Shown here piece by piece: positions 26,688-64,000 of a DNA stretch of 64,000 nt (positions are counted from its first letter, which is position 1; every line of letters starts with the position of its first letter). Source of the stretch: a phage; the NCBI GenBank assembly GCA_014687725.1, contig GCA_014687725.1_4094.1; one strand, given 5' to 3'. Under the pieces are notes generated by a model, which saw only the letters and a program-made list of their open reading frames with translations, did not search any database and was not told the DNA's origin. The translations under genes were made by a program, and so were the position numbers.

Positions 26688-26715
26688 GTGTAATCATTTT
26701 AAAGGAGAACATATA

Positions 26716-27764: not shown

Positions 27765-27765
27765 T

Positions 27766-28380: not shown

Positions 28381-28381
28381 T

Positions 28382-28576: not shown

Positions 28577-28584
28577 GGTAAAAA

Positions 28585-29441: not shown

Positions 29442-29451
29442 GGAAAGTACA

Positions 29452-30003: not shown

Positions 30004-30185
30004 TGTATGATTATGTGATGGTATAATGCTGATGAAAGAGTTATTTGAAGATCAGTTCAATACATATGTGGATAATATTCTTTATTCCAGCCGTGCTAGT
30101 CAACGAGGAAATCGTGCTTACAATATAGATTACCTATTAGTGGTGCTGAGTTCACAGTACACCTACGCTGTACAGAGGACATATT

Positions 30186-30389
30186 ATGAATAATTTTAGA
30201 GATGTTGCTAAGGAGAAGTTCAAGTGCAGTTTAGATTTTGGGTTAAATGATTTTCTGACATGCACAATGTACAGGAATGATGATTATGAGCAATCCGTAA
30301 TTTCGTTGCACAGATATTTCGAAATAATTTACGCAAGATATCTTAGAAGGTTAGAGGGAATAGGGGATTGGAATTATGATTACGTTTGA
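30186..30389 (+). CDS. hypothetical small protein (67 aa)
   Basis: Track ORF after 180-bp gap with extended -10 TGGTATAAT 30020-30028. Confidence 0.5.
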   Translation: MNNFRDVAKEKFKCSLDFGLNDFLTCTMYRNDDYEQSVISLHRYFEIIYARYLRRLEGIGDWNYDYV

Positions 30390-30600
30390 AGAGCCGGAAG
30401 TGGCATATTGCTTTAGTGTGAAAGGTTTTGAATTCATGATGGATTCTATTTTGAAGGATACATATTTGGTTCAGATTGCAGTTGCAGATAATACAGATAA
30501 TGCATTACAGCGAGTATTGAATATATACGAGAGGACGAGTCGAAGGCTTTGTGCAATGAAAAGGATTGAAGAAATCAAGGTTTCTAGGCTGAATAAATAG
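30376..30600 (+). CDS. hypothetical small protein (74 aa)
   Basis: Track ORF. Confidence 0.5.
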   Translation: MITFEEPEVAYCFSVKGFEFMMDSILKDTYLVQIAVADNTDNALQRVLNIYERTSRRLCAMKRIEEIKVSRLNK

Positions 30601-30798
30601 AGACGTTTCATTTTGACAGGCCGCAGGGGGGGGTCAAAAAAATTTCCGCTGAAAAACATGCTAAGGTATATGTTTAATATAAAGTTTTATATTGTGTTTT
30701 TCAGAGTACAGTTCATGTTTCCTGAAACAAAAAATACCCCGCCGCCGAACGTTCTCCTTATATTGGAGTTTACCTTATTAATTATAGTAGAGATTAAG

Positions 30799-31176
30799 AT
30801 GGAAATAAAATATAATGAATTTTGTGCAAGGACATGGATGTACACTGGTGAGTTAGTTACGCACTCTAACTTATACAAGGGTGATTTAAACTACGCTAGG
30901 GACAAGATTTTAAAGTACTGGAATGCTGACTTTTATTTGATGGATTTTAGTACTGGGTTTAGGGGTAAAGCAACCGAGATGTTGGACTATACAGTACTTG
31001 ATGATGCTGCACTGTTTCAGGCGGCATTAGTATTTGATAAGAAGTACATCTGTACATTAGAAGAGATGATTGAATTACAGCGTAGAATTAAATGTATTCA
31101 CAGGGAATGTATAGATATCTGGTGCAGTACTGGTGAAGATGATTTTTGTAATCATTTCAATCTAGGGGAAGTGTGA
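30799..31176 (+). CDS. family B paralog
   Basis: motif LDDAALFQAALVFD; ATG 30799; track start 30613 (TTG) runs through a G8 tract and non-coding-looking sequence. Confidence 0.55.
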   Translation: MEIKYNEFCARTWMYTGELVTHSNLYKGDLNYARDKILKYWNADFYLMDFSTGFRGKATEMLDYTVLDDAALFQAALVFDKKYICTLEEMIELQRRIKCIHRECIDIWCSTGEDDFCNHFNLGEV

Positions 31177-31337
31177 TGGAATTTGATTTTTTAATATCAG
31201 TACATTCTTTTAAGCACAGTTATCAGTACTTTTGTAATTTAAACAAAGGTGATTTGATTATGGATACAGATACAGAGGCTGTATACAGTTCTAATATTCT
31301 GTACAAATTCAGTACTAATCTGAAGGAGATTTTATGA
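31176..31337 (+). CDS. family B paralog, truncated N-terminal duplicate (53 aa)
   Basis: first 27 codons near-identical to gene 31705-32061 (MEFDFLISVH(S/T)FKHSYQYFCNLNKGDL); likely recombination remnant. Confidence 0.4.
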   Translation: MEFDFLISVHSFKHSYQYFCNLNKGDLIMDTDTEAVYSSNILYKFSTNLKEIL

Positions 31338-31705
31338 AAAAAGAAATTAGAATTCAATTCGGTATGAGGAAAAAAGAGGTCATCTGTACACTGAATCATG
31401 CGGTCGTGGAAAGCCTTGGTGGTGCATTACAAAAATTCTCCCATTTTGTTCTTGTACTATATGAAAATGGGTCTTTTAAAATCTTCACATATGATGATTC
31501 AAAAAATTACCGTAATGATTTTGTAAATCTGACAGTACTGTCAGAAGAGGAATTCTTTCAGGAAAGTACTGTCTGGAATTTACCAGGAGCACCAATTGAA
31601 TACGTCCGTGCTACACAGGCAGAAATGATCAAAGTAATGCAGAACTATCCAGAAGATTATATGACTAAGTTTCCTGAATCTATTTATGTAGAGGTTGAGT
31701 ACTGA
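31334..31705 (+). CDS. family B paralog
   Basis: motif LSEEEFFQESTVW; ATGA overlap. Confidence 0.65.
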   Translation: MKKEIRIQFGMRKKEVICTLNHAVVESLGGALQKFSHFVLVLYENGSFKIFTYDDSKNYRNDFVNLTVLSEEEFFQESTVWNLPGAPIEYVRATQAEMIKVMQNYPEDYMTKFPESIYVEVEY

Positions 31706-32061
31706 TGGAATTTGATTTTTTAATATCAGTACATACTTTCAAGCACAGTTATCAGTACTTTTGTAATTTAAACAAAGGTGATTTAATGCACAGTGCAAAT
31801 GAGTATATTCATTACACTCAGGGTAAATTTACATTCATTGATTACAGTTCATTACAGTATCCACACCAAGATATGCCGGACTATACATTAATGGATACCG
31901 CAGAACTATTCCAAGAATCATTAGTATTTGATAAGAAGTACTTGTGTACATTTGAAGAAGTTATTGCAATACAAAATGAAATGAAAGAGTATGCTGCTTT
32001 GCATAAACCCAATGCAAGTATTAATCAAGAATACAAATTCAATTTAGGAATTCAAGAATGA
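31705..32061 (+). CDS. family B paralog
   Basis: motif MDTAELFQESLVFD. Confidence 0.65.
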   Translation: MEFDFLISVHTFKHSYQYFCNLNKGDLMHSANEYIHYTQGKFTFIDYSSLQYPHQDMPDYTLMDTAELFQESLVFDKKYLCTFEEVIAIQNEMKEYAALHKPNASINQEYKFNLGIQE

Positions 32062-32417
32062 CATATGATTATTCTATGTACTATTATAAGTTACCTAAAG
32101 GATGGGACTTGTGCTGTAATCTTATTAAGGGCGACTCGGAACATGAGTTGAGTTTATATATGCATTACAAAGATTCTTGTTTTAAATTTATTCATGTATC
32201 ACATGACGACTATGACTATGAATCTGAGAGTCTTATAGATTATACAGTACTGGACGATGGTGAACTATTTCAGGCTGCATTAGTGTTTGATAAGAATAAG
32301 TACTCCTGTACATTTGAAGAAATGGTTTCTTTGCAAAATGAAATGAAGAGATTTGAAAAAGAAAACGTATTTAATCCATCCCCATCAAGAACGAATAATT
32401 ATTATTTCAATATATGA
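32058..32417 (+). CDS. family B paralog
   Basis: motif LDDGELFQAALVFD; ATGA overlap. Confidence 0.65.
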   Translation: MTYDYSMYYYKLPKGWDLCCNLIKGDSEHELSLYMHYKDSCFKFIHVSHDDYDYESESLIDYTVLDDGELFQAALVFDKNKYSCTFEEMVSLQNEMKRFEKENVFNPSPSRTNNYYFNI

Positions 32418-32426
32418 GATTATAAA

Positions 32427-32918
32427 ATGACATTACAGAGTTCATTGGAAAAAGCAAAGAAGATTCATGAGTACATGAATATGGCAAAAGAAGGTTCAGT
32501 TTACGGTGTTTTCAAAGACACAAGTACTCAATATTATGTACCGGATAACCTCCTTTATAATGACTGCTCAGATACAGAAACGTGCGTACTGGATACAGAA
32601 ACGTGCATACTAGATACCGACCCTAATGATTATGAATGCTTCATTAATATGCATAATGAGTACATGGTCTATATTAATGATACAGATACCATCAACAGTA
32701 CTGACAGCGATTCCAATGACATTATAATTCCGAGTGAAGTACTGGAAGGTCCGTGGGATAGTGAAGAGTATTACTTCCAACAAAGTACTGTATATGATAA
32801 TGAAGTACTTGATGTTATTATAATTATGTGGTACTTTAAAAGTATTGGTTCTGGGAACTTCTATTTCGATTACAAATACGTAAAGAAAACTGTAGATAAC
32901 GGTATTAACAGGGGTTGA
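32427..32918 (+). CDS. family B paralog (WDSEEYYFQ subgroup)
   Basis: motif WDSEEYYFQQSTVYD; contains in-frame 21-bp tandem repeat 32571-32621. Confidence 0.65.
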   Translation: MTLQSSLEKAKKIHEYMNMAKEGSVYGVFKDTSTQYYVPDNLLYNDCSDTETCVLDTETCILDTDPNDYECFINMHNEYMVYINDTDTINSTDSDSNDIIIPSEVLEGPWDSEEYYFQQSTVYDNEVLDVIIIMWYFKSIGSGNFYFDYKYVKKTVDNGINRG

Positions 32919-32919
32919 A

Positions 32920-33390
32920 ATGAGTTTAGAAAGAGCATTAGAGATTGCGAAGTTAATTGATTTATGCAGCAAAGAAATTGTAGCAAATTGTCTTAATGGA
33001 TATCTATTCAAGGAAGGTAAATCATATTGTCGAATGAGATACGATGACAGTAGTGAGTACATTCACATGTATGAAGAAAACTTAGATTCTTCTGAAACAA
33101 CACTCAATGGGTGTGATGTTAATTTGGAAGATAATTACATGTACTTCTGTCGTGATGCTGATATTTTAATACAAGATTCTGACATTATATCTGGTGCAGC
33201 AGAGAAACATCTTCCGTATTCAGTACTGGATAATGACTGGGGAAGTGAAGAGTACTACTTCCAGCAGAATACTATCTACGAGGAAGATGTACTTGACAAG
33301 CTTGTCATTCTGTGGTACTTTAATAATACAGATTGTCCTAGCTTCTATTTGGACTTGGATCTACTACGAGTTATTAAAGAGGATATATGA
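32920..33390 (+). CDS. family B paralog (WDSEEYYFQ subgroup)
   Basis: motif WGSEEYYFQQNTIYE. Confidence 0.65.
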   Translation: MSLERALEIAKLIDLCSKEIVANCLNGYLFKEGKSYCRMRYDDSSEYIHMYEENLDSSETTLNGCDVNLEDNYMYFCRDADILIQDSDIISGAAEKHLPYSVLDNDWGSEEYYFQQNTIYEEDVLDKLVILWYFNNTDCPSFYLDLDLLRVIKEDI

Positions 33391-33830
33391 GTTTAGCAAG
33401 TGCACTTGAACTAGCACACAGAATACATCACTTCCACGATAACATAAAAAGTGGTTTCTATGGTGATAAAGTAAGTGCATTTGGTAATGAGTATTATCTA
33501 TCAGGTATAAAGACATACTCTGATGATATTTTACTTATGGGACAGGATAAAGACAATACTATACAGTACTCTTCATGTAGTCAATATACTAATTTTTTTG
33601 TATATATTCCAGGTACTAAGATTACTTTTGACACAACAAATACACCTGTTGACTTCGGGGTACTTGATGGCCCGTGGGGTACTGAAGAGTATTACTTCCA
33701 ACAGAGTCTCATTTTTAACCAAGAAATTCTTGATTCCTTGGTTGTGTTGTGGTACTTTAAGGAATTGAATTTTGAACCATTCTTTCTTGACTGGGGAGCA
33801 TGTGAATATTTAAGTACAGGGGATTTGTAA
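33387..33830 (+). CDS. family B paralog (WDSEEYYFQ subgroup)
   Basis: motif WGTEEYYFQQSLIFN; ATGA overlap. Confidence 0.65.
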   Translation: MSLASALELAHRIHHFHDNIKSGFYGDKVSAFGNEYYLSGIKTYSDDILLMGQDKDNTIQYSSCSQYTNFFVYIPGTKITFDTTNTPVDFGVLDGPWGTEEYYFQQSLIFNQEILDSLVVLWYFKELNFEPFFLDWGACEYLSTGDL

Positions 33831-34318
33831 TGTCATTACAAAGTGCATTGAAAGAAGCAAAGAAGATTCATGAGTACATGATTATGGTACAGGAAGGTTC
33901 AGTACCAGGTGTATATAAAACATCTGATACTGAATTTTTTGTAAAAGACCGTGACGATTATGACGAGTCCGAGATATGTGCAGAAACATTAGTACTGCAC
34001 ACTGATACTGGTGACAGTGATAACTGTGAATATCATATGTACAATCAGTACATTAGTTATTGCCGTAATGAAGATATTACCATCTACAACACAGATAGTG
34101 ATGCTGATGACACTATCATTCCTTATTCAGTACTGGAAGGACCGTGGGATAGTGAAGAATATTACTTCCAGAATAGTACGTTGTACAATGAAGAAGAATT
34201 AGATGTTATTGTAATTATGTGGTATTTCAAAAGTATTGACTCCAGTAGTTTCTATTTTGATTATGAATATGTAGAGAATACTGTAGGAGAAGGTAATGTC
34301 ATTACAAAGTGCTCTTGA
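33830..34318 (+). CDS. family B paralog (WDSEEYYFQ subgroup)
   Basis: motif WDSEEYYFQNSTLYN. Confidence 0.65.
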   Translation: MSLQSALKEAKKIHEYMIMVQEGSVPGVYKTSDTEFFVKDRDDYDESEICAETLVLHTDTGDSDNCEYHMYNQYISYCRNEDITIYNTDSDADDTIIPYSVLEGPWDSEEYYFQNSTLYNEEELDVIVIMWYFKSIDSSSFYFDYEYVENTVGEGNVITKCS

Positions 34319-34748
34319 AAAAGCAAAAGAACTACATGGATACTTTGACGATATAAAGGCAGGAAAGTTCAAAGAAGTGTACAAAGCCGAGAACGGCAAC
34401 TACTACAAGGATGAAATGTATAATAACTCCGTTGGTGTAAGGGTTATTCTTGGGTTGAATTCCAATAGTCCTATATCGTTTTCTGAATACAATAGAGATG
34501 CAGAATTTATTAGTTATGTTGAAAATGGTAGCATTCGTTTTATTAATCGCAAAAAACCATTAATTTTGAATTATGAAGTACTGGAAGGTCCGTGGGATAG
34601 TGAAGAGTATTACTTCCAAAACAGTACTGTTTACGATGATGAAGTACTTGAAGCATTAGTTATTATGTGGTACTTAAAGAGTGTTAACTGTCCTCGATTT
34701 TATTTGGATTTCGAAGAACTTCGTAAAGATCCAGAAGGTATAGAATGA
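34296..34748 (+). CDS. family B paralog (WDSEEYYFQ subgroup)
   Basis: motif WDSEEYYFQNSTVYD. Confidence 0.65.
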   Translation: MSLQSALEKAKELHGYFDDIKAGKFKEVYKAENGNYYKDEMYNNSVGVRVILGLNSNSPISFSEYNRDAEFISYVENGSIRFINRKKPLILNYEVLEGPWDSEEYYFQNSTVYDDEVLEALVIMWYLKSVNCPRFYLDFEELRKDPEGIE

Positions 34749-35059
34749 AAAACTTATTCAGTGTTCAGTACGTCCCTGGTGAAATTAGTTTATTGTATCT
34801 GTTTGATCATGATAATTCATTATTACTAGTAGTAAAGAAATGCCAAGCTAGTTCGTTTGTTGAATACATTCACGATAGTGAATATATACCTGATTTTTTA
34901 GAGTGTGATTATTACGATGAACATGAATCATTTATTTTCCAGGAATCTCTCGTATGGGATAAATCGATCAACTTCTTTACGTTAATTGAATTACAAAAGC
35001 AGGTGAAGTATCATTGGGATTATTTAATCACACAGGATTACATTGAGATAGAAATATAA
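34745..35059 (+). CDS. family B paralog
   Basis: motif DEHESFIFQESLVWD; ATGA overlap. Confidence 0.65.
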   Translation: MKNLFSVQYVPGEISLLYLFDHDNSLLLVVKKCQASSFVEYIHDSEYIPDFLECDYYDEHESFIFQESLVWDKSINFFTLIELQKQVKYHWDYLITQDYIEIEI

Positions 35060-35367
35060 TGACTAAAAATGAATTTGATTCACTTTGTACGGTTTATAAT
35101 TCATTGACAGAAATACCTGACTTTATTAATTACATTTCAGCTTTAAATCAAATTATGCATAGTTTTGAACAATCGTTTGAAGAGAAATATGCTGGTAGAA
35201 AAGTTCTATGTCATATGTCAATGTACTTAGGAGATGGTGAGCCTTACACTACAAGTACTACATGTGAAATAAAAAAATATAATATATTATTGGGGACAAT
35301 AGAATTCACAGTATCCAATGGTGGTAGTTATATGTACTTTAGAGATGGAGTGGTTGAATTATTATGA
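35059..35367 (+). CDS. hypothetical protein (102 aa), array member
   Basis: Track ORF; no clear motif. Confidence 0.5.
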   Translation: MTKNEFDSLCTVYNSLTEIPDFINYISALNQIMHSFEQSFEEKYAGRKVLCHMSMYLGDGEPYTTSTTCEIKKYNILLGTIEFTVSNGGSYMYFRDGVVELL

Positions 35368-35813
35368 GTTACGAAAGTGCAATCAAGAAAGCAAATGATA
35401 TTCTACGCGTCGTTAAATTCTTCAAAGAAAATCCTGAATACTTAGCTGATGAAAACCATGATCACGATGAGAGATTGAGACGAAAAATTGTCGCTTTATT
35501 TGACACTAATGCGGATAATTATAGTCTAATTGAGTTAGCATACGATTATATTTCATTGAACCGAAACGGCAATATAGTTAATATAGAAAGACATGCAACT
35601 GAAGAATCTTTTAAAATTTCAGATATTTTATCCCTGAGTACTGAAGAAGGGTACTTCCAGGGTAGTACTGTTTATGAACAAGGAACACTTGACAATCTAT
35701 GCACATTCAGTGTAATATATCAGAAATCTGTATTAGATGTATTTTATCTTGACACTGCTGAACTGGATACACTAACCAATTTTGTTACTACTGAAGAGGC
35801 TACATTCGAGTGA
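35364..35813 (+). CDS. family B paralog
   Basis: motif LSTEEGYFQGSTVYE; ATGA overlap. Confidence 0.65.
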   Translation: MSYESAIKKANDILRVVKFFKENPEYLADENHDHDERLRRKIVALFDTNADNYSLIELAYDYISLNRNGNIVNIERHATEESFKISDILSLSTEEGYFQGSTVYEQGTLDNLCTFSVIYQKSVLDVFYLDTAELDTLTNFVTTEEATFE

Positions 35814-36346
35814 TGAAAGTTAACATCAATGACTTTGATGCATTACAAGATTTATCAAAAAAGATTCGCACCATTGTACCAGTACTCAAAAAATGCAGTA
35901 CTGGTTTAATCGATCCTAGTACTGTTGTTAATGAGAAGTACAATTTTCATTATGTATTACAGGGTACTGGGGCATTCCAGAAGTGTGAGGTGCGTGAGAC
36001 ACACGTAATTGATACATCATTGTTTTCTATTGGTGCACCTGTGTCGAATAATACTATTTTCCTAGACAACGCTGGAAATATTCAACAATTAACATTTAAG
36101 AAAAGGAAAAAGAACAATAACATTGGTGTGTATGCGATGAAGTGGGGTCAACCTGATTTGAAGCGTGAAATTCACATCCCTAAGTACAATTACAATGCAT
36201 TTGACGAACAGTGTTTTCAACTATCGTGTACTGACCCTGACTATGCTATCATTCAGTTCTATATGGAATTGCAGATAGCATTTAACAGTAATTTGTATAT
36301 TAACTTATTGGCGATTAACATTGATGAAGTATTCAAAAACATTTAA
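35813..36346 (+). CDS. family B paralog (divergent)
   Basis: motif FDEQCFQLSCTD; ATG 35813 (track GTG 35810). Confidence 0.55.
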   Translation: MKVNINDFDALQDLSKKIRTIVPVLKKCSTGLIDPSTVVNEKYNFHYVLQGTGAFQKCEVRETHVIDTSLFSIGAPVSNNTIFLDNAGNIQQLTFKKRKKNNNIGVYAMKWGQPDLKREIHIPKYNYNAFDEQCFQLSCTDPDYAIIQFYMELQIAFNSNLYINLLAINIDEVFKNI

Positions 36347-36542
36347 TCGAATTGAATACATGAGAACTGTGAGTGCAGTGTGGGACATATGGTTCACTAC
36401 TAAACCAAAAATGGATTACCATGACTTTAAGCTCTTGTTCTTCGTTGGCTCTAACAAACAGGATGTTGCAATGAAGGGTTATATTCAGCACTTACAGGAA
36501 CTAATCCAGAAGAGAATATATGAAAATAATAGACCAAAATGA
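36324..36542 (+). CDS. family A paralog (island inside family B block)
   Basis: motif FFVGSNKQDV; ATG 36324 (track TTG 36321). Confidence 0.55.
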   Translation: MKYSKTFNRIEYMRTVSAVWDIWFTTKPKMDYHDFKLLFFVGSNKQDVAMKGYIQHLQELIQKRIYENNRPK

Positions 36543-36711
36543 CATTGCTAAACTATTCAATATATATTCTACTAGAATGATGCAAACAGACTCATATAGT
36601 ACTGAATTCAAAGAGTTGAAAGTCCTGATGTACTTGGGAACCCAATATCAGGAACAAGTTATTTTGGAATATATTAATTCGCTGAAGAAGGATATCCGTT
36701 ATGTACGATGA
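36520..36711 (+). CDS. family A paralog (island)
   Basis: motif LGTQYQEQ. Confidence 0.6.
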   Translation: MKIIDQNDIAKLFNIYSTRMMQTDSYSTEFKELKVLMYLGTQYQEQVILEYINSLKKDIRYVR

Positions 36712-37261
36712 TTTAGATATTGCGTTTGAACGTATGGTAATTTTAATGCAATGTGCAGAAATGCATGAAACAATCCGTCGCACCAAAGGGATTGAATATA
36801 CAAGTAAACTATTCTCATACGAAAGTCGTCGAGGGATGGATCATTTTTACTGCACTGATTGTTCAAAGTTTTCAGTACTGAAATATTATCATCCTACTGT
36901 TTCCAATAATAGTTTAATATCCACATATGACGGTGATCTGTTTAGTGTAATGTATGACACATTACATCCATCAATTTCAATCTATAAAGATTGCGATAGT
37001 AGTTTATCGTATATAATTGAAGATTACTTATCTCCTAATACTGAAGAGAATATTTTTCAGAACAGTGTGTTGCATGATGAATTAAGTATAAAATGCATCT
37101 ATATGTTCAATAAGTTAAAAGAGTACGCCGATAATAATTACTTAATTGATAAGTTAGCAGTATTGTCTGTTTCCGTTTTTAATACAAATGACATTGATAT
37201 GAAATACTATAATGAGATTTGTAAAGTACATCATATGTATAAGGAACTATTATGTCAATAA
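36701..37261 (+). CDS. family B paralog
   Basis: motif NTEENIFQNSVLHD. Confidence 0.65.
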   Translation: MYDDLDIAFERMVILMQCAEMHETIRRTKGIEYTSKLFSYESRRGMDHFYCTDCSKFSVLKYYHPTVSNNSLISTYDGDLFSVMYDTLHPSISIYKDCDSSLSYIIEDYLSPNTEENIFQNSVLHDELSIKCIYMFNKLKEYADNNYLIDKLAVLSVSVFNTNDIDMKYYNEICKVHHMYKELLCQ

Positions 37262-37854
37262 ATGCAAATAAATGTTGTAGTGCAGATGTGCATTTGTTTT
37301 TTAAGAAATTAGCAAATGATATTATATATATGCAGGAAATGATTTATCACAAACGAGCGGATTTAGAAAAAGCATTAGTACAGTTCTCATTTATGCTTGA
37401 TGGTGATATATTTCTAGAGAGTGATGCATTGCGAATAGTATTAGACAAAAATGCTAAAAGATTTTTATTTCATATAGATAATAAATTATGTTCCTCCGTA
37501 TGTCGTACTTTTTATAATCGTGATTCGGACTTATATCAATTCCTTTATTCTAAAGGTGCAGTAGAAGCATCATATGGTGATGGTTATGCCCTAGGAAAGA
37601 GTATTCCATTTATGAAATCATTTAAAATAGAACACATCAGTACTGATGAAGATGCAATGTTCACAAATGATATAACTATGGGACGTGAAGATGCAATGCG
37701 ATATATTACAAATTCTATGCATACATTCTTTCAACGAACAGAATTTGATAATGTATATATATCAAATGTAAATATTTTCAATGACCTGTGTCAGTACTTG
37801 AGAAGTGTTTGTGATTTTGATGAAAGCTATTGTAAGCTTTATACTGAGGTATAA
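37252..37854 (+). CDS. hypothetical protein (200 aa), array member
   Basis: Track ORF; no clear motif. Confidence 0.55.
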   Translation: MSINANKCCSADVHLFFKKLANDIIYMQEMIYHKRADLEKALVQFSFMLDGDIFLESDALRIVLDKNAKRFLFHIDNKLCSSVCRTFYNRDSDLYQFLYSKGAVEASYGDGYALGKSIPFMKSFKIEHISTDEDAMFTNDITMGREDAMRYITNSMHTFFQRTEFDNVYISNVNIFNDLCQYLRSVCDFDESYCKLYTEV

Positions 37855-37859
37855 AACAA

Positions 37860-38222
37860 ATGAACACATTAAGTATTACATACTATACAACTAAAAAATT
37901 AGTTACTTGTTTAATATCATTGAAGACAAACCATGATGATATGTTTGATATGGCTGCATATGAATTAGAATTATCAGAAGATGGCTTCAAGAGCTATGAA
38001 GTATATAGCTATGTTCGTGAAGATGTAATTGACACTACACTAATGCAAGAGGATGAGTTATTCCAAGAAAGTTTAGTATGGGATAATAAGTACGATTGTA
38101 ACTTTGATTTCTTATGTTTAATCCAGAAAGAAATGAAAAGAATCTTTGATAATTATCCAGTGAAGAGATTGAGTACTGGACCGGAGCAGTACAGGAGAAT
38201 TTTATTCCGTTATGAAGACTGA
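37860..38222 (+). CDS. family B paralog
   Basis: motif MQEDELFQESLVWD. Confidence 0.65.
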   Translation: MNTLSITYYTTKKLVTCLISLKTNHDDMFDMAAYELELSEDGFKSYEVYSYVREDVIDTTLMQEDELFQESLVWDNKYDCNFDFLCLIQKEMKRIFDNYPVKRLSTGPEQYRRILFRYED

Positions 38223-38547
38223 ATTAGTTAAAGTAATGTACGCTACTCATATTAAACTACTACTTGTTAAATTTGATTATAATAAAAAACATAATGATTT
38301 CTATACTTTAATTCGTGATGAAAATACATTCTCCTTGCGATGCAACAATATACCCTTGAAGATAAATGATTTTACTTCACTTGACGAGGGGGAATTATTT
38401 CAAGAATCATTAGTTTTTAATAGTAATATAAAAATTGATATAGAAGTTATTAAAAAATACCAGATTCTATTGAACAAAATTATGAATTGTTATCCATGTG
38501 AAATAGGTGGTCATATGCAGTTCAAATCAAAAATGTATGAATTATGA
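38212..38547 (+). CDS. family B paralog
   Basis: motif LDEGELFQESLVFN. Confidence 0.65.
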   Translation: MKTELVKVMYATHIKLLLVKFDYNKKHNDFYTLIRDENTFSLRCNNIPLKINDFTSLDEGELFQESLVFNSNIKIDIEVIKKYQILLNKIMNCYPCEIGGHMQFKSKMYEL

Positions 38548-38554
38548 GGTTTAT

Positions 38555-39091
38555 ATGTTAGATAAAAAAATGAACTCTGGAACCCAATATAATCATCTTA
38601 AGTTGGATACATTCGAATCAGCTATCAGTACAGCACAAGATATAATTGATATTATCAAGTTCATTAAAGAAGATAAGTTCAAATGTTTGAAAATACTAAA
38701 TCGTTCAATGTACCGTGATAAAAATATTCATGTATCAGTACGTAGACCGAAAGATCAAGAAAGTGGGAGAGATTTCTATAACAACAGTGAGCAGTTCGAA
38801 TGTGAATATGATCCAGAATTTAGAGGTGGTTTCATGTGTTACAGTATGAAGGATACCTCACACATTGAGATACGTTCATCGAAAGGTGGCATACGTACAT
38901 TAGAGTTTATTGATATAGTTTTAAATCAGGAATACTACTTTCAACTATCATTATTGTTTCCTGCATACGATTTAGGAGTTCTATTCATGTATAAGTACTT
39001 TCATGAGCACTGGAATGAAGACTTCTATCTGGACTTAGAAGATTACCAATTAGTTTGGGAAGAAATGGTAGAACTTCGCAACCACTCTTGA
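38555..39091 (+). CDS. family B paralog
   Basis: motif LNQEYYFQLSLLF; ATG 38555 with SD GAGG (track GTG 38507 overlaps upstream gene). Confidence 0.6.
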   Translation: MLDKKMNSGTQYNHLKLDTFESAISTAQDIIDIIKFIKEDKFKCLKILNRSMYRDKNIHVSVRRPKDQESGRDFYNNSEQFECEYDPEFRGGFMCYSMKDTSHIEIRSSKGGIRTLEFIDIVLNQEYYFQLSLLFPAYDLGVLFMYKYFHEHWNEDFYLDLEDYQLVWEEMVELRNHS

Positions 39092-39117
39092 CACCCACCG
39101 ATTTTTTGTGATATAAT
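39088..39117 (+). promoter_or_regulatory. sigma70-like promoter with extended -10, inside array
   Basis: TTGACA 39088-39093 (overlaps upstream stop), TG-n-TATAAT ending 39117; hairpin CCCTTTA..TAAAGGG downstream. Confidence 0.55.
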
Positions 39118-39150
39118 CCCTTTATATTAATTGTAAAGGGTTATAACACA

Positions 39151-39627
39151 ATGTCCAAAGACCTATCATTTAGCAATGCACAAAAAATAGCAAAAGACAT
39201 TATCAGGGTTTATAAATTCCTTGCGAATGTTACTGAAGATTTTTTAATTGATAAAAATAAAGTTATTAAACGAAATGGATATCTTTCCTTTATGGATGGG
39301 TTACTCTATAGCTCAGATGAATCAACTTGTAGTATTAGAGTGCTTGATGAAGTACCAAGTGGTGATTTTATTTCATACCATTTCCCAAGTTCAGATAATT
39401 TCAAATACTACAATCATCTTCTTATAAATGAAGCATTTGATACGATTGTAATTAACACTGAAGAAGAGTTCTTCCAGTACAGTACTGTGTATCCAGAGAG
39501 GATTGTTTTCAGTTCAGTGATTTTAACAGCCCTTAAAAATGAACTAAATTCCGATAGTGATCATTTCTACTTGGACCTGAACAATGTCGATTGTATTATT
39601 GAGTACCTGGAGAAAAATGGTTTATGA
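39151..39627 (+). CDS. family B paralog
   Basis: motif NTEEEFFQYSTVY. Confidence 0.65.
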   Translation: MSKDLSFSNAQKIAKDIIRVYKFLANVTEDFLIDKNKVIKRNGYLSFMDGLLYSSDESTCSIRVLDEVPSGDFISYHFPSSDNFKYYNHLLINEAFDTIVINTEEEFFQYSTVYPERIVFSSVILTALKNELNSDSDHFYLDLNNVDCIIEYLEKNGL

Positions 39628-40094
39628 TTACTACAGAATATGATTACGATGGTGTTTTAGAATTTGCAGAAAATATCTATCGCATTGCAAAGGAGTTCAG
39701 AAGTCCTAAACCTTTTGGTGGTATGTTTCAATACGATGAGTTCAGTTCATCTAAAGGAAGACTAGCATTTACTAATGGTAGAGGTAATCAAATCTACGCG
39801 GAGTACTTTGATGATAATGACTTTCATTACAAAGCAGAATACATTTCATATTGCCCTGGGTCTGATTTGAAGATTAATATTGATACATTTAGAGAAGCAG
39901 TACAAGTTCCATATAATGATTTAGTATTCATGTCAGAGGAAATGTACTTTCAGAAATCATTGATTAATGATACAAAAGTACTTAATGCTATGTTATTTTA
40001 TGGTGCACTACTTAATCATTACAAATACAATCAACGATTCTTTTTAGATTTAGCAGTATACTATAAATGCGTGGATTATTTGAATGCAAAATAA
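39624..40094 (+). CDS. family B paralog
   Basis: motif MSEEMYFQKSLIND; ATGA overlap. Confidence 0.65.
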   Translation: MITTEYDYDGVLEFAENIYRIAKEFRSPKPFGGMFQYDEFSSSKGRLAFTNGRGNQIYAEYFDDNDFHYKAEYISYCPGSDLKINIDTFREAVQVPYNDLVFMSEEMYFQKSLINDTKVLNAMLFYGALLNHYKYNQRFFLDLAVYYKCVDYLNAK

Positions 40095-40446
40095 GAAAAC
40101 AATTCAGTACATGACTGATGGTTCTGAATACTTTGTTTCAAGATATGTAATCAACTACAACCATTATGTAACCTATATTCCAGAGTACAATCAATTTTAT
40201 ATTCAGATTTATCAAAATAATGGAAAGATAAATGATATATATTCAGAAATAAAAATCCCTGATTATAGTACTTTATCAGAAGAGGAATTGTTTCAGGAGA
40301 ACACTATAAGTACTGAAGATGTGTACGAAATAATGGAATACCAGAAGGTACTTAAACATTTTCATGAAGCAAATGATATACAAATAGATATTGTTAAACC
40401 GTGGTGTTACAATACATATGAGGTAAATTATGTTAGAAATGATTAA
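40084..40446 (+). CDS. family B paralog
   Basis: motif LSEEELFQENTIS. Confidence 0.65.
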   Translation: MQNKKTIQYMTDGSEYFVSRYVINYNHYVTYIPEYNQFYIQIYQNNGKINDIYSEIKIPDYSTLSEEELFQENTISTEDVYEIMEYQKVLKHFHEANDIQIDIVKPWCYNTYEVNYVRND

Positions 40447-40843
40447 AATTATGCAACGCTGTCTTGTTGATCAACACGGGGTATATGGATATCGTTTAAG
40501 TGCTCCTATTGACAAAAATAAAACAACCTATGTAAGCTATAATGCTGTACATGGATTTGATATATTCATTGATGCCAACAATAAAATCAAACAAGCTAAG
40601 GATGTGTCTATAATGACCCCTGATGAGTTATTCCAGTACAGCTTAGTTCTTCCTACATGTATCGATTTACAACGTCTAGGAGCGATACAGAAGGTTTTAC
40701 GCGAACATAAAGTACAACCCAATAAAGTCACACACATTCCAGAAACAATCTTCAAAACCATAGAAGTAGAAACTCCTGATTATATGTTAAGTGATGATGA
40801 GTACTACGAAAAACACTTCCCTGGTAAAGTTTGGAGAGACTAA
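40430..40843 (+). CDS. family B paralog
   Basis: motif MTPDELFQYSLVL. Confidence 0.65.
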   Translation: MLEMIKIMQRCLVDQHGVYGYRLSAPIDKNKTTYVSYNAVHGFDIFIDANNKIKQAKDVSIMTPDELFQYSLVLPTCIDLQRLGAIQKVLREHKVQPNKVTHIPETIFKTIEVETPDYMLSDDEYYEKHFPGKVWRD

Positions 40844-41334
40844 TGAACCGAAAGTACAGAGAAACTATGAAGTTCGCTAAGGAGTGTTTAGAAGTGTTTG
40901 AGTTCATCAATGCTCATAAAGATTTACTCCATAGATACATTGCAATCAGTGAGACAGATGACCATAGGTACATATGTTCTCGAATTCAAGATAAGATATA
41001 TAAGATTGTGTTCTCGGAAACATACACAGATACATCTAATTCACTATATGATTTTGCACGTACTGATTACGTTTCATACAAATCTTGGTCTGATAGTATT
41101 AAAATTGTGCACAAGCAAAATACATTTTATTCTTTTCTTACGGACATTTCCGAAGAAAGTTACTTTCAAAACAGTTTAATTTATACAGAAAAAGAACTCA
41201 AAATGTTATTCATAATGTCGTACTTTAAAAAGTACTGCAAATTTAATACATTATCTTTTGAGATTTCTGCAATGAAAGTATTCATTAAAAATGTAAAAGA
41301 ATTAAAGAGGGCTTTTAATGTACATAGAAAATGA
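40843..41334 (+). CDS. family B paralog
   Basis: motif ISEESYFQNSLIY; ATG 40843 (track TTG 40831). Confidence 0.6.
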   Translation: MNRKYRETMKFAKECLEVFEFINAHKDLLHRYIAISETDDHRYICSRIQDKIYKIVFSETYTDTSNSLYDFARTDYVSYKSWSDSIKIVHKQNTFYSFLTDISEESYFQNSLIYTEKELKMLFIMSYFKKYCKFNTLSFEISAMKVFIKNVKELKRAFNVHRK

Positions 41335-55089: not shown

Positions 55090-55611
55090 ATGTCGAAGAA
55101 GGATGCTTCGAAAAAACATTCAGTACATTTCAGTACTGGAAAGGACAACTGGACAACTCCCAAAGATTTCTTTGAAGATTTGGATGAGTTATGGGGATTT
55201 ACACTTGATGCTGCTTGTGTTGATGAGACTGCATTGTGTGATAACTATTTTACACCTGATGATAATTCTCTTGAACAAGACTGGGGAAAAAATATTGTTT
55301 GGTTAAATCCCCCATATAGTGATTTAAAAACTTGGTTAGCCAAGGCAGTAGATGCGTATAATAAAGGTGCTACAGTACTGATTCTAGTACCATCCAGGAC
55401 TGATACAATAGCATTTCAGGAATATGCAGCCAAAATATGTGATTGTATTTGTTTTATCAAAGGTAGATTACGTTTTGGTATTCCAGAAGAACCTGATAAG
55501 AAAACAGATTCAGCACCATTTCCTTCGTGTCTTATAGTCCTTGATAAGTACCTCACTACTGCTAAAATTAATTATCTTAAATCTCTCGGATTGGTGATGA
55601 AGAATCTATGA
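55090..55611 (+). CDS. DNA N6-adenine methyltransferase (phage Dam-type, NPPY family)
   Basis: WTTPKDFF, LNPPYS, VPSRTDT, GRLRFG blocks; SD AAAGGA. Confidence 0.85.
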   Translation: MSKKDASKKHSVHFSTGKDNWTTPKDFFEDLDELWGFTLDAACVDETALCDNYFTPDDNSLEQDWGKNIVWLNPPYSDLKTWLAKAVDAYNKGATVLILVPSRTDTIAFQEYAAKICDCICFIKGRLRFGIPEEPDKKTDSAPFPSCLIVLDKYLTTAKINYLKSLGLVMKNL

Positions 55612-56141
55612 AAGAAACATGTGTATTAACGTTTGGTCGTATTAATCCTGTACATCGTGGACATGGTTTAGTTTTTGAAAAGGCCAAAACATTACAAGAA
55701 CAGTACAATGCTGATTTAAAAATATATCTAAGCACCAGTACTGACAATATAAAAAACCCACTCCCACCTGAACTAAAAATGTATTATACAGAGGGATTCT
55801 ATCCTTCAGTGCAAGAGAACATCTACACAGAAGACAATCTATTTGATATAATGAGAGAACTGGATGGAAAGTACTTAGATGTTCTTTTCATTTGTGGTTC
55901 TGACCGTATTGATTCTTTTCAAAAAACTCTTGACATGTACAATGGTAAGTTGTATAATTTTTGTAGTATAAAAGCAATTCAGGCAGGTATTGACCGTAAT
56001 GTAAGTCAATATAGCTCAACACAAATGCGTAACTTCGCAAAAAATGAAGATTTTGATAGTTTTCGTGAGTTTTTACCTGGAAATGACGAGGACTTAAAAA
56101 TACAATTATTTGAAGACGTTATAAAATACATGAGGAAATAA
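55608..56141 (+). CDS. HxGH-motif nucleotidyltransferase (cytidylyl/adenylyltransferase superfamily, NMN adenylyltransferase-like)
   Basis: N-terminal TFGRINPVHRGH = (T/H)xGH signature; ATGA overlap with methyltransferase gene. Confidence 0.7.
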   Translation: MKETCVLTFGRINPVHRGHGLVFEKAKTLQEQYNADLKIYLSTSTDNIKNPLPPELKMYYTEGFYPSVQENIYTEDNLFDIMRELDGKYLDVLFICGSDRIDSFQKTLDMYNGKLYNFCSIKAIQAGIDRNVSQYSSTQMRNFAKNEDFDSFREFLPGNDEDLKIQLFEDVIKYMRK

Positions 56142-57358: not shown

Positions 57359-57634
57359 ATGAATTATAAAGTTCTACAATATACATACAGTGTTTTGTTT
57401 GATTTACATCACAATGGAAGATATCTCAATACAATACGAGAAAACACATTCACTCATACTATCTGGATTAATCACTTAATAATGATACGTGAATATTTTG
57501 TTAATAGTGAGATAATCATTCGTGGTAAAAAACAGAAGATAGAACAAGTTAATAGTTTTGGTGGTAAATTAGTGCTATCATTTATAGATAGTAATACTAA
57601 TGAAAGATATAGTATAGATTTGGTGGACATATGA
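57359..57634 (+). CDS. family C paralog
   Basis: N-terminus MNYKVLQYTYSVLFDL; SD GGGGA. Confidence 0.65.
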   Translation: MNYKVLQYTYSVLFDLHHNGRYLNTIRENTFTHTIWINHLIMIREYFVNSEIIIRGKKQKIEQVNSFGGKLVLSFIDSNTNERYSIDLVDI

Positions 57635-57897
57635 ATTATAAAGATTTCCTACTAACATACAAGATTATTCAAGATTTAGCACACGACAATGATAGCCCTA
57701 GTCTAGAAGACACATGCACTGAAATGATTCATACGATTCGTGGTAAGATTAAAAAAAAATTCAGTACTGTTATTATTGGTGATGACCATGCAGAATTTTC
57801 TGATATAATCATTAGACGTGATGGTAAAGTTGAGGTTCAGTACTACACTGATTTTGGATTTACCAGTATTCCGTTGGAGATATTCCCTTGGGATTAA
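57631..57897 (+). CDS. family C paralog
   Basis: N-terminus MNYKDFLLTYKIIQDL; ATGA overlap. Confidence 0.65.
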   Translation: MNYKDFLLTYKIIQDLAHDNDSPSLEDTCTEMIHTIRGKIKKKFSTVIIGDDHAEFSDIIIRRDGKVEVQYYTDFGFTSIPLEIFPWD

Positions 57898-58199
57898 ATT
57901 TAAATGATATACAATTCACTTATAAGATCCTATATGATTTGTATGATGTATACCTTGTTAGTAACAACATAGGTTCACATAACCGATCCAAAGAACAACC
58001 ATTTATTGATTTATATATTGAGTACTTAGATTCAGTAGGTGAATATATAAAAAAGAATTACAGTACTTTTATCGATGGAAATGATAAATTCGATTTCTAT
58101 GGTGTGCAATCATATAATGGTATAATCCATGTTCAATTTCAGGAAATAACCGATAGGGGATTTATCGAGATTAAAGTTGTGAAGTTGGTGAATTTATAA
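57888..58199 (+). CDS. family C paralog
   Basis: LNDIQFTYKILYDLYD; TTG start with SD GGAGA, no in-frame ATG nearby. Confidence 0.5.
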   Translation: MGLNLNDIQFTYKILYDLYDVYLVSNNIGSHNRSKEQPFIDLYIEYLDSVGEYIKKNYSTFIDGNDKFDFYGVQSYNGIIHVQFQEITDRGFIEIKVVKLVNL

Positions 58200-58209
58200 G
58201 AGGTTACAT

Positions 58210-58521
58210 ATGTTATTAAATGATATACAATTCACATACAAATTTTTGTATATCCAATACGCTACGGTTGATGCTGGAGAATATCTCTACAGTGAAATCT
58301 ATCGTTCGGTATGGATAAAGTTTTTGGATGAATTACATGAATATTACCATGATTTGTGTATAGTTCGTGATAATAAAATATACAAATTCCGCGATATTGT
58401 TAGTCATAGCGGTAAGCTACGATTGGAATTAAGTACTGATAGTGATGTTGATTGGATTGGTGTAAATTTACTGGAGTTGGAGAATGAAAAACAACTTAAA
58501 GGAAATACAAGTATTTTATAA
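58210..58521 (+). CDS. family C paralog
   Basis: MLLNDIQFTYKFLYIQY; SD AAGAGG. Confidence 0.65.
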   Translation: MLLNDIQFTYKFLYIQYATVDAGEYLYSEIYRSVWIKFLDELHEYYHDLCIVRDNKIYKFRDIVSHSGKLRLELSTDSDVDWIGVNLLELENEKQLKGNTSIL

Positions 58522-58768
58522 ATTCTTATACTTATCATATGTAAAAGATGAGTACTATGAAAGTGTGTATTATTTTTTATGGCAACATTACCGTACTATA
58601 GTAAGAGATTTATATATAGGAAAATCTATCATATACAATGGTGAAAAATGTATATGTACTGATGTCGTTAGTTTTAATGGTTCTTTAACACTGTGTTTCA
58701 GATGCGATAATAATAGTGGGTCATTTTCATTAAACGTATATCAGTTAGAAGGAATAAATTTTGAATAA
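58484..58768 (+). CDS. family C paralog
   Basis: LKEIQVFYKFLYLSY; 38-nt overlap with upstream gene. Confidence 0.55.
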   Translation: MKNNLKEIQVFYKFLYLSYVKDEYYESVYYFLWQHYRTIVRDLYIGKSIIYNGEKCICTDVVSFNGSLTLCFRCDNNSGSFSLNVYQLEGINFE

Positions 58769-61027: not shown

Positions 61028-61053
61028 AGGCCAGCGTTTGCTGGTCTTTTTTC
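61028..61053 (+). terminator. rho-independent terminator
   Basis: stem AGGCCAGC/GCTGGTCT + T6. Confidence 0.75.
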
Positions 61054-62641: not shown

Positions 62642-62905
62642 ATGAATATTAAAGATAGATTACAATTACTATACACTATTGAACAGGCTGCTTATGATCT
62701 TGTTCGAAAAATCTCAGATGAACTACCTAAAGGAACTAAAGTTCGTGTACGTGAGATGAATTATTTTTCTGGAAAATTTGAAGAACAAGTACTAACAGTG
62801 AATAAAGTAACATACTATGAATCTGAGTTGTCTATTCAGTGTGAATCTGATCATGGATTAATATCATATTATGGAACTGATGTAGATATAGAGGTAATAA
62901 AATGA
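62642..62905 (+). CDS. hypothetical small protein (87 aa)
   Basis: ATG 62642 just after upstream TAA (track 62597). Confidence 0.55.
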   Translation: MNIKDRLQLLYTIEQAAYDLVRKISDELPKGTKVRVREMNYFSGKFEEQVLTVNKVTYYESELSIQCESDHGLISYYGTDVDIEVIK

Positions 62906-64000
62906 CCCTTTTGCAAATATATGAAGATTTAATGCACTTATGTAATACAAACGATGCATTCTTTTATGTGGATCATAAAAGCCCTGCTGGTGGCACGTAT
63001 CGTGTATTCAGTTATCGTCTAGCATCATACACTGATTTCATGCAACCAAATGCGTTGGAAACCCGTGGCTCTATGTGGGAAATTGATGAAGAAGGTGAAA
63101 TGATACGTTGTGCAGCACGTACAATGAAAAAGTTCTTCAATGCTTACGAGAATCCTGCTACAATGTTCCCTGCTAACACCACATTCGATGACATTGCGGT
63201 AGTGATGCCTAAGTTGGATGGTTCGATTATCAGTACTTACCGTGATAATGATGGTGAGATTCGTTGTAAATCACATACTGCATTGTATTCTGACCATGCG
63301 ATTAACAGTACTCGACTTATTAACGAGAACCAGAATTTGTATCAGTACATCGACGAAGCGGAACGTTTAGGTTACACAGTTAATATGGAGTATACAAGCC
63401 CAGAGTACCGAATTGTATTACCATATCAGGTAGAACAACTGTTTGTACTGAACGTTCGTCATCGTGTGAGTGGTGAGTTGCTATGTGGTAAAGCACTACG
63501 TGATAAGTTTCCATGTCTTGCACAGTACAGTACTAATATGACTGGAAAAGATATTCATCACACTTTTCCGGTACGAAATACCTTCCGTGAAAGCGTGGAG
63601 GAAGTTCATAAAATGCTTGATATTGAGGGTTTTGTGTGCATCCTAAATAATGGGACAATGTGTAAAATAAAGACTGACTGGTACAGTTCATTACATCTTA
63701 CAAAAGATAGTATTATTATTGATTCTCATTTATATGAAGCAGTATTAAATGGTTCAAGTGATGATTTAAAACAATTGTTCAGTACTGATGAATATGCTAT
63801 GCAAAAGATATTAAGAATGGAACAATTGGTATTTTCGTGCTATAATGCATTACAAGATGAAGTAGAAAGCTTCGTCAAGGAACACAAGCACTTGGAGCGA
63901 AAGGAATTCGCAATGAAGGTTCAGGAGTGTTTAACTAATGAACTGAATCGTCAGGGCTTGGCCTTTGCAATGTATAACAATAAGAAAGTTGATTACAAAG
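62902..64000 (+). CDS. rnlA: RNA ligase 1 (T4 gp63/Rnl1-like), 3'-truncated by window end
   Basis: ATGA overlap start; blocks TYRVFSYRLASYTDF, ALETRGSMWEID, nucleotidyl-lysine motif KLDGS, IEGFVCILNNG..KIKTDWYSSLH parallel T4 Rnl1; not in track (no stop in window). Confidence 0.9.
   Translation, partial: MTLLQIYEDLMHLCNTNDAFFYVDHKSPAGGTYRVFSYRLASYTDFMQPNALETRGSMWEIDEEGEMIRCAARTMKKFFNAYENPATMFPANTTFDDIAVVMPKLDGSIISTYRDNDGEIRCKSHTALYSDHAINSTRLINENQNLYQYIDEAERLGYTVNMEYTSPEYRIVLPYQVEQLFVLNVRHRVSGELLCGKALRDKFPCLAQYSTNMTGKDIHHTFPVRNTFRESVEEVHKMLDIEGFVCILNNGTMCKIKTDWYSSLHLTKDSIIIDSHLYEAVLNGSSDDLKQLFSTDEYAMQKILRMEQLVFSCYNALQDEVESFVKEHKHLERKEFAMKVQECLTNELNRQGLAFAMYNNKKVDYK

Follow-up and report, generated by a model that had tools for sequence, protein, structure and literature searches.

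An rnlA (RNA ligase 1) orthologue in DNA from a Rak2-like jumbo coliphage (Asteriusvirus)

The 3′ end of the window, by which we mean the whole 64,000-nucleotide stretch of phage DNA analysed here, carries the RNA ligase 1 gene rnlA (62902..64000, + strand), identified by its matches to T4 Rnl1 and TIGR02308. The frame opens with an ATG at 62902 and runs through 366 codons without a stop until it is truncated by the window end, in agreement with the first-pass annotation, which had described a partial ORF leaving the window over the same interval. Full-length rnlA in the near-identical phage phAPEC6 (L001:12001-13143) has 380 codons, so that the window copy, comprising codons 1-366, lacks only 14, with the expected sequence …ETLIKYMKIVLKDF. 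The two copies differ at two nucleotides over their shared 1099 bases (62982 and 63185), the latter placing Phe95 in the window and Cys95 in phAPEC6. A Shine-Dalgarno-like GAGG, read from the sequence, lies 7 nt 5′ of the rnlA ATG (62891..62894, + strand). The start shares ATGA (62902-62905) with the stop of the preceding 87-aa ORF (gp377c in the phAPEC6 annotation), and this overlap suggests that rnlA is translationally coupled to the upstream ORF. At 37.7%, the GC content of rnlA is slightly higher than that of the neighbouring genes (30-35%).

Profile, alignment and structure comparisons confirm the ORF as a genuine rnlA/gp63 orthologue, a two-domain RNA ligase of the Rnl1 family with predicted ATP-dependent activity. 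The similarity to T4 Rnl1 (gp63) claimed in the first pass was borne out in BLASTP and HMM searches: phmmer aligns residues 4-342 to T4 Rnl1 (PDB 2c5u) with E=1.1e-56, blastp against T4 Rnl1 gives E=1e-63 at 35.7% identity, the match to PHROG 562 has E=4e-108, and the 366-aa window fragment scores 292.9 bits against the NCBIfam equivalog TIGR02308, above its cutoff of 242.25. The adenylyltransferase (nucleotidyltransferase) domain, residues 55-261 (63064..63684, + strand), matches PF09511 (RNA_lig_T4_1) with 58 bits over profile positions 3-227 of 227. It is followed by an all-helical domain at the C terminus, of which the window holds residues 268-366 (63703..64000, + strand) and which continues to 380; the match to PF20819 (T4_Rnl1_C) scores 60.5 bits for the truncated protein and 62.4 for the full-length one, the cutoff being 27. 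Asp287, Asp288 and Lys334 of the C domain are invariant, as is Arg333 in a 16-sequence alignment. This helical domain sets Rnl1 apart from Rnl2-6 and is the source of the tRNA specificity of T4 Rnl1, and its role is documented (PMC1920235, PMC6379707, PMC11494293). An AlphaFold model of the rnlA product (pLDDT 93) is helical over residues 259-377. Its best PDB match in Foldseek is T4 Rnl1 (E=4e-32, both domains), with 388 columns aligned to 2c5u; the superposition has a TM of 0.62 and an rmsd of 14.5 Å, possibly because the model orients its two domains differently. Foldseek also lists PDB 9do4, T4 Rnl1 with ATP and Mg. Rnl1 is present in 1644 phage records, T4-like for the most part, and the gene is already annotated as an RNA ligase in Asteriusvirus genomes; the finding itself is thus known and ordinary.

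Residue conservation was assessed in the 16-sequence alignment and in a 49-sequence set of homologues. Motif I, K104-L-D-G-S (63211..63225, + strand), aligns with T4 99-KEDGS-103, so that the adenylated-lysine motif had been read correctly in the first pass; its K, D, G and S do not vary across the 16 sequences, and KxDG with its lysine is constant in all aligned homologues. Lys104, the counterpart of T4 Lys99, is the predicted AMP-attachment site. Glu163 of motif III (T4 Glu159; 63388..63390, + strand) is invariant in 16/16 and 49/49 sequences. Invariance extends to Glu242-Gly243 of motif IV (T4 Glu227-Gly228; 63625..63630, + strand) and to Lys255-Ile-Lys257 of motif V (T4 Lys240 and Lys242; 63664..63672, + strand), and in the 16-sequence alignment to Arg55, Lys77, Phe78 and Phe79. 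Roles of the Rnl1-specific Arg, Lys and Phe residues have been described, and the T4 residues matching Arg55 and Lys77 touch the ATP γ-phosphate (PMC6379707). Membership in the Rnl1 family, which the first pass had made dependent on a full-length alignment, is upheld by that alignment, in which the following T4 residues are retained: Tyr37, Arg54, Lys75, Phe76, Phe77, Lys99, Asp101, Gly102, Lys117, Ser118, Glu159, Glu227, Gly228, Lys240, Lys242 and Tyr246.

The one departure lies in motif Ia, defined as Ser-Lys or Ser-Arg and contacting the ATP γ-phosphate and/or the RNA 5′-phosphate (PMC1807946); its importance is also described in PMC6379707. Here K123-S124-H125 (63268..63276, + strand) aligns with T4 K117-S118-K119: the serine is kept (Ser124), His125 takes the place of the basic residue Lys119, and the Ser-Lys/Arg dipeptide is absent. 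The position is H, N or Q in all 29 members of the Rak2-like clade, compared with Lys in 26/26 sequences outside it. Work by Wang and colleagues in 2003 is said to have found that K119A abolishes step 2 in T4. On that basis, and from general statements on motif Ia, we take Lys119 to be essential in T4. Motif Ia belongs to the whole nucleotidyltransferase superfamily and holds a catalytic residue in T4, but it does not serve to delimit Rnl1; because every comparison that does delimit the family places the protein within it, we regard the change as clade-specific variation within Rnl1. Since the missing lysine normally contacts phosphates, step 2 may differ or be weaker. In the clade lacking Lys119, a search for a compensating Lys or Arg found only poorly conserved or C-domain positions (Arg200, His236, Arg305, Arg350).

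The surrounding DNA identifies the phage. The DNA is 98-99.8% identical to Asteriusvirus genomes (310-383 kb, about 350 kb), with 99.8% reached against more than 20 of them, including phAPEC6, G17 and PBECO4; the whole window is identical to no record, the best match being 98.2% over 24 kb. The taxonomy line of the matching genomes reads Caudoviricetes and Asteriusvirus, not Straboviridae, a family with genomes of about 160-250 kb. By sequence identity, the source is an Asteriusvirus, a Rak2-like jumbo coliphage of approximately 350 kb that is only distantly related to T4. Rak2-like phages have 41 proteins in common with T4, which has been termed a 'distant relationship', and phage CBB has 21 of the 38 T4 core genes (PMC5259590); group 2 jumbo phages are regarded as expansions from T4-like predecessors (PMC7824862). 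The proposal that the ligase anchors the window in a T4-type genome therefore needs qualification. A deep link to T4 stands, in the shared core genes and the order of rnlA and pseT, but DNA identity and taxonomy assign the window to Asteriusvirus rather than Straboviridae. Likewise, the upstream paralog arrays can defensibly be called accessory expansions if the backbone that carries them is described as distantly related to T4, but not if it is described as T4-type.

The first-pass annotation had also suggested looking for a polynucleotide kinase-phosphatase (Pnkp) partner, and one is encoded in phAPEC6 beyond the point that corresponds to the window end: pseT (L001:13967-14899) lies on the same strand, 823 bp downstream of rnlA. 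The phAPEC6 Pnkp is 34% identical to T4 PseT (E=1.5e-49) and contains AAA_33 and HAD_PNKP (149 bits) domains, with the P-loop GxxGxGKT and DxDGT motifs intact. The rnlA-to-pseT order is common to T4, Raoultella M21a, KVP40, Salmonella 7t3 and phAPEC6, and in Asteriusvirus and 7t3 three small ORFs separate the two genes. A comparison of the three intervening phAPEC6 ORFs with T4 alc and pseT.1-3 found no similarity (best E=0.54), so that only gene order is shared. None of the T4 neighbours denA, alc and nrd was found near phAPEC6 rnlA; from the T4 order nrdA-nrdB-denA-rnlA-alc-pseT.3-.1-pseT, only the linkage of rnlA to pseT with small ORFs between them is kept.

The two genes are probably carried on one transcript, as judged from the placement of terminator-like sites. 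A hairpin followed by a T-run (61028..61047, + strand) is a possible, if uncertain, upstream boundary of the rnlA transcription unit. The next comparable same-strand hairpin in phAPEC6, a strong one, lies directly 3′ of pseT (L001:14903-14929), and the only terminator-like site of the rnlA-pseT interval is a weak stem inside the rnlA coding sequence, with three G-C pairs and a poor T tail. A sigma-70 promoter scan returned fewer matches than shuffled sequence, and we therefore claim no promoter.

We consider it likely that this Asteriusvirus rnlA orthologue seals broken tRNA anticodon loops together with Pnkp, a reading in which activity, tRNA specificity, co-transcription and counter-defence are all extrapolated. 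In the proposed mechanism, Lys104 would be adenylylated from ATP, the AMP would be transferred to the 5′-phosphate end of the RNA, and attack by the 3′-OH would close the break. The helical C domain would steer the ligase to tRNA anticodon loops. Its probable partner is the Pnkp whose gene lies about 0.8 kb further downstream, and the pair would undo the cuts that PrrC- or RloC-type anticodon nucleases of the host make in tRNA. The Pnkp and Rnl1 repair pathway of T4 is documented (PMC1920235, PMC6379707, PMC11494293), and for CBB, a related phage, the rnlA homologue has previously been proposed to function in tRNA repair (PMC5259590). The putative counter-defence role is extrapolated from T4 and PrrC (PMC11494293, PMC1920235).

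Other roles for the protein deserve consideration. GenBank and PHROG label it 'tail fiber protein attachment catalyst', and T4 gp63 has an established dual function that appears in the annotation of the T4 record; the main role could accordingly be morphogenetic, attaching tail fibres to the baseplate as in the second activity of T4 gp63, with ligation secondary. We consider this quite improbable. The label was transferred purely by homology, and all ligase active-site residues but one are invariant in about 50 diverged homologues, a pattern that speaks for selection on catalysis. The gene also sits near pseT among small early-type ORFs, away from structural genes, and the tail-fibre apparatus and morphogenesis proteins of Rak2-like phages are highly diverged from those of T4 (PMC5259590). 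In the structural study of phAPEC6, gp376 goes unmentioned in the main text, a weak negative for presence in the virion. The two roles are, moreover, compatible with each other. Repair might instead be directed at tRNAs and mRNAs of the phage itself or at damage by phage nucleases, as general RNA repair and processing rather than defence against host anticodon nucleases. Asteriusvirus genomes encode seven tRNAs, a CCA-adding enzyme and a tRNA deaminase (PMC11895373), jumbo phages often carry several RNA ligases thought to be specialised and non-redundant (PMC7824862), and CBB has two (PMC5259590). This broader role nevertheless appears unlikely, given that the tRNA-specificity C domain and the linkage to Pnkp reproduce exactly the restriction-repair pair of T4, and that no tRNA genes were found in the 64-kb window.

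The substitution in motif Ia raises the further question of whether the ligase is catalytically impaired, or has altered chemistry or substrate. The position lacks Lys or Arg in all 29 clade members and has Lys in all 26 sequences outside the clade, the motif has a described importance as set out above, and loss of the lysine in T4 reportedly blocks step 2. We still judge impairment or alteration on this account to be unlikely: across the clade, strong conservation holds for the remaining catalytic residues and for the entire C domain, which one would not expect if the enzyme were dead; hydrogen bonding to a phosphate is still within reach of His, Asn and Gln; and Arg55 and Lys77, matching the T4 contacts to the ATP γ-phosphate, are kept. 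A more specific suggestion, which we put forward only tentatively, is that the Rak2-like clade, with His, Asn or Gln instead of the lysine, may run RNA adenylylation (step 2) differently, for instance through another residue or the C domain, or may have shifted its substrate range, for example to different cleaved tRNAs. The substitution also bears on the origin of the gene. Its slightly elevated GC content and the prevalence of T4-like phages among the Rnl1 records would fit a recent horizontal gain from a T4-like phage, which would make rnlA uninformative on backbone ancestry. Such a transfer is highly improbable, for identity to any T4-like Rnl1 is just 35-40%, a neighbour-joining tree groups the Rnl1 proteins of Asteriusvirus, Salmonella 7t3, GAP32 and Eneladusvirus in a deep clade of their own, the motif Ia change is specific to the Rak2-like sequences, the pseT linkage is shared, and many further T4 homologues have been reported in Rak2-like genomes (PMC5259590).

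With tRNA repair by ligase and Pnkp as the preferred reading, the main value of the locus lies in identification: rnlA and the 98-99.8% DNA matches place the window in an Asteriusvirus, and the upstream paralog arrays are consequently to be read against the Rak2-like lineage, not T4 proper. As far as gene content and order indicate, these 350-kb phages appear to keep the classical heal-and-seal module for tRNA, Rnl1 with Pnkp, its two genes still being linked, which fits published views of group 2 jumbo phages as investing in RNA repair. For an RNA-ligase specialist, the only point of possible interest is that the whole clade has lost the lysine of motif Ia.

Among known systems, T4 Rnl1 (gp63, RnlA; PDB 2c5u, 5tt6, 9do4) is a close counterpart in architecture. 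At 374 aa, compared with 380 aa here, it has the same two-domain build, with an Rnl1-type N subdomain, a nucleotidyltransferase core and a helical C domain; the two proteins agree in motifs I, III, IV and V and in Arg54, Lys75, Phe77, Lys117 and Ser118, and in T4 as in phAPEC6 a same-strand Pnkp gene follows rnlA after a few small ORFs. The differences are an identity of only about 36%, the replacement of motif Ia Lys119 by His, and an insertion or variable segment of about 15 residues between motifs IIIa and IV (about residues 200-225). The denA and alc flanks are missing, the intervening ORFs are unrelated to pseT.1-3, and the genome is that of an approximately 350-kb jumbo phage. The same gene is found in Rak2-like phages as phAPEC6 gp376c, 121Q gp438, Salmonella 7t3_0262 and Pectobacterium CBB_83, and in PBECO4, G17, Cronobacter GAP32 and Erwinia pEa_SNUABM_50. 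RnlA proteins are 99-100% identical within Asteriusvirus and 57-59% identical to those of 7t3, GAP32 and Eneladusvirus, and H, N or Q at motif Ia is common to all Rak2-like members. More remotely, the ligase domain of fungal Trl1 (Rnl6 clade; PDB 6n67, 8rbj) shares the Rnl1-like adenylyltransferase including the N subdomain (Foldseek E ~1e-12; PMC6379707). Unlike the RnlA of the window, to which it is 14-15% identical, Trl1 has another C-terminal domain, requires a 2′-PO4 end and retains the lysine in its motif Ia, SKHS.

The rnlA reading frame (62902-64000, plus strand) starts at an ATG that overlaps the stop codon of the preceding 87-codon ORF (ATGA) and has a GAGG 7 nt to its 5′ side; it continues for 366 codons without a stop up to the window end. 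The complete gene in the near-identical Asteriusvirus (Rak2-like) jumbo coliphage vB_EcoM_phAPEC6 has 380 codons (L001:12001-13143, where L001 denotes coordinates in the phAPEC6 record). The window holds 96% of the protein, and the label 'partial ORF' in the first-pass annotation therefore undersells its content. The two genes differ at two of their 1,099 common bases (62982 and 63185), and the second difference alters residue 95, which is Phe in the window and Cys in both phAPEC6 and the cluster representative P0001. The GC content of rnlA (37.7% over 63000-63999) is slightly above that of the neighbouring small-ORF region (30-35%).

The proposed membership of the RNA ligase 1 (Rnl1) family is confirmed. 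BLASTP and HMM searches, suggested as a check by the first-pass annotation, agreed with structure and orthologue matches: the window fragment matched the T4 RNA ligase 1 structures 2c5u, 5tt6 and 9do4 over residues 4-342 (E about 1e-56), T4 RnlA by blastp (E=1e-63, 35.7% identity), PHROG 562 (E=4e-108), Pfam PF09511 (58 bits) and PF20819, T4_Rnl1_C (60 bits on the fragment, 62 bits with the full length), and it exceeded the curated cutoff of the NCBIfam equivalog TIGR02308 (292.9 versus 242.25 bits). Aligning the full-length protein with T4 Rnl1 and either 14 or 48 diverged homologues upheld this assignment and bore out the adenylated-lysine motif, with K104-LDGS (63211-63225) opposite T4 K99-EDGS. 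Also kept (T4 numbering) are Tyr37, Asp101, Gly102, Lys117, Ser118, Glu159 of motif III, Glu227-Gly228 of motif IV, Lys240 and Lys242 of motif V, Tyr246, and the C-domain residues Asp272, Asp273, Arg318 and Lys319.

An AlphaFold2 model built from a 49-sequence alignment (mean pLDDT 93, pTM 0.80) features an N-terminal half rich in β-structure and a helical C-terminal third. T4 Rnl1 was its top Foldseek match in the PDB (E=4e-32, 388 aligned columns), followed by fungal Trl1 ligase domains (E about 1e-12) and, lower, by Rnl3, Rnl5 and Rnl2 enzymes. Superposition on T4 Rnl1 gave a global TM-score of only 0.62 and an rmsd of 14.5 Å; the model may have its two domains oriented differently, which could be one reason.

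At the DNA level, 20 phage records share at least 99% identity with rnlA and three further ones share 95-99%; all come from jumbo phages of Escherichia or Salmonella with lengths of 310-383 kb, among them phAPEC6, G17, Sharanji, slurp01, PBECO4 and SHEFM2K. The best matches to a 24-kb query ending at rnlA were G17, Sharanji and phAPEC6 (98.2% over the full length). phAPEC6 matches the entire window in collinear blocks of 90-98.5% identity, lowest over 1-21 kb (90-96%), where short gaps between blocks are uncovered; no record in the phage collection searched is identical to all of 1-64000. The taxonomy line of the matching records reads Caudoviricetes and Asteriusvirus, with the family absent and not Straboviridae. 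The window is that of an Asteriusvirus jumbo phage, a distant relative of T4. All matches annotate the gene as RNA ligase, RnlA, or 'RNA ligase and tail fiber protein attachment catalyst'. The gene itself is known, dozens of public genomes already carrying an annotation for it, and the finding is thus an ordinary one; its value lies in showing where the window comes from.

The remainder of the window carries well over 100 small hypothetical genes on one strand. All-against-all blastp (E<1e-4) grouped paralogs into families of 30, 10, 8 and 4 members, the largest consisting of proteins of ~70 amino acids. Their tandem arrays of small plus-strand ORFs lie at 15585-23726 (plus 36520-36711), 21961-40843, 32427-41334 and 57359-58768, and in phAPEC6 these genes are annotated solely as hypothetical proteins. 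Among the few genes of the stretch with a predicted function are rnlA and, by phAPEC6 annotation, a DNA N6-adenine methyltransferase and a cytidylyltransferase (~55090-56140; gp394c and gp393c, L001:4189-5240).

The kinase-phosphatase partner that the first-pass annotation proposed to look for is encoded in phAPEC6, on the same strand as rnlA and 823 bp past its stop codon (pseT, 310 amino acids, L001:13967-14899). This Pnkp aligns with T4 PseT along its full length at 34% identity (E=1.5e-49) and matches AAA_33 and HAD_PNKP (149 bits). The P-loop of the kinase, the Asp-Arg pair and the DxDGT motif of the phosphatase are all retained. Just past the window end (L001:13174-13963), rnlA and pseT are separated by three small ORFs of 84, 78 and 103 amino acids; none had a Pfam match above threshold or similarity to T4 alc or pseT.1-3. 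A strong plus-strand terminator-like hairpin with a T-run precedes the rnlA block (window 61028-61047), and another, with an 11-bp stem and a T-run, directly follows pseT (L001:14903-14929, plus strand). The terminator scan found only weak stems between these hairpins and, from rnlA to pseT, nothing but a weak stem within the rnlA coding sequence (three G-C pairs, poor T tail). This placement fits a possible multi-gene transcription unit from about 61066 through pseT, without proving one.

The protein departs from T4 at motif Ia, the Ser-Lys/Arg dipeptide of the nucleotidyltransferase superfamily: within K123-S124-H125 (63268-63276, plus strand), Ser124-His125 (63271-63276) stands opposite T4 Ser118-Lys119. 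A neighbour-joining tree built from 55 Rnl1 sequences groups the nearest relatives in a single clade; besides many metagenomic contigs, the longest of 370 kb, it comprises Asteriusvirus, Salmonella 7t3, Cronobacter GAP32 (P0040) and Erwinia Eneladusvirus (P0043). All 29 sampled members of this Rak2-like clade lack the lysine (His in 18, Asn in 7, Gln in 4), whereas it is present in all 26 sequences outside, among them a sister clade whose contigs reach about 350 kb, as well as T4, KVP40, Raoultella M21a and Stenotrophomonas RAS14. The position is the sharpest charge switch of the alignment, and a search of the clade for a compensating basic residue found no clear one. In T4, K119A reportedly blocks step 2 specifically (Wang et al., 2003). 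The clade-wide substitution is a small point, and a testable one.

An enzyme impaired or altered by this change is possible but unlikely given the conservation elsewhere; because the rest of the protein is strongly conserved, we read the change as clade-specific variation inside the Rnl1 family that does not count against membership or activity. By analogy with T4 gp63, the protein might act in tail fiber attachment, a role compatible with ligation; the matching records carry that label, but it is inherited from gp63 by homology, and the conserved catalytic residues and the linkage to pseT lead us to argue for ligase activity as the selected function. The T4 Pnkp and Rnl1 pair counters the PrrC anticodon nuclease in a well-documented pathway, with the Rnl1 C domain providing tRNA specificity (PMC1920235; PMC6379707; PMC11494293). 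We infer that this counter-defence role carried over, such that Asteriusvirus Rnl1 and Pnkp would likewise repair tRNA cleaved by an anticodon nuclease. The CBB paper suggests tRNA repair for the rnlA homologue of that phage (PMC5259590), and we found no experiment on any Rak2-like Rnl1. Less probably, Rnl1 serves RNA processing in general; Asteriusvirus phages have seven tRNAs along with a CCA-adding enzyme and a tRNA deaminase (PMC11895373).

The first-pass annotation took rnlA to anchor the window in a T4-type genome, which holds only in a loose sense: the phage is a distant T4 relative, but a jumbo phage outside Straboviridae. Homologues of Rnl1 are present in 1644 phage records, for the most part T4-like genomes of 160-250 kb, and also in unrelated-looking large phages (Stenotrophomonas RAS14, Caulobacter C2, Campylobacter phages); the gene alone is therefore a weak anchor. 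Rak2-like phages (PBECO4, 121Q, GAP32, Rak2, CBB) have 41 proteins in common with T4, and 21 of the 38 core genes of T4 were identified in CBB; large divergence is evident from portal and capsid trees, and the authors speak of a 'distant relationship' (PMC5259590). In the view of Iyer et al., group 2 jumbo phages expanded from T4-like predecessors (PMC7824862), and Sharanji has the hallmark sigma factor of that group (PMC11895373). Recent horizontal acquisition of rnlA is unlikely: since identity to T4-like Rnl1 is only 35-40%, the Rak2-like clade is monophyletic, and the order rnlA-few small ORFs-pseT is kept in T4, Raoultella M21a, KVP40, Salmonella 7t3 and phAPEC6, deep common descent fits better. 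Salmonella 7t3 shares the phAPEC6 arrangement, including three small ORFs between the genes. In T4, by contrast, other small ORFs with no relation to these separate rnlA from pseT, and rnlA is adjoined by denA and alc, which are absent here.
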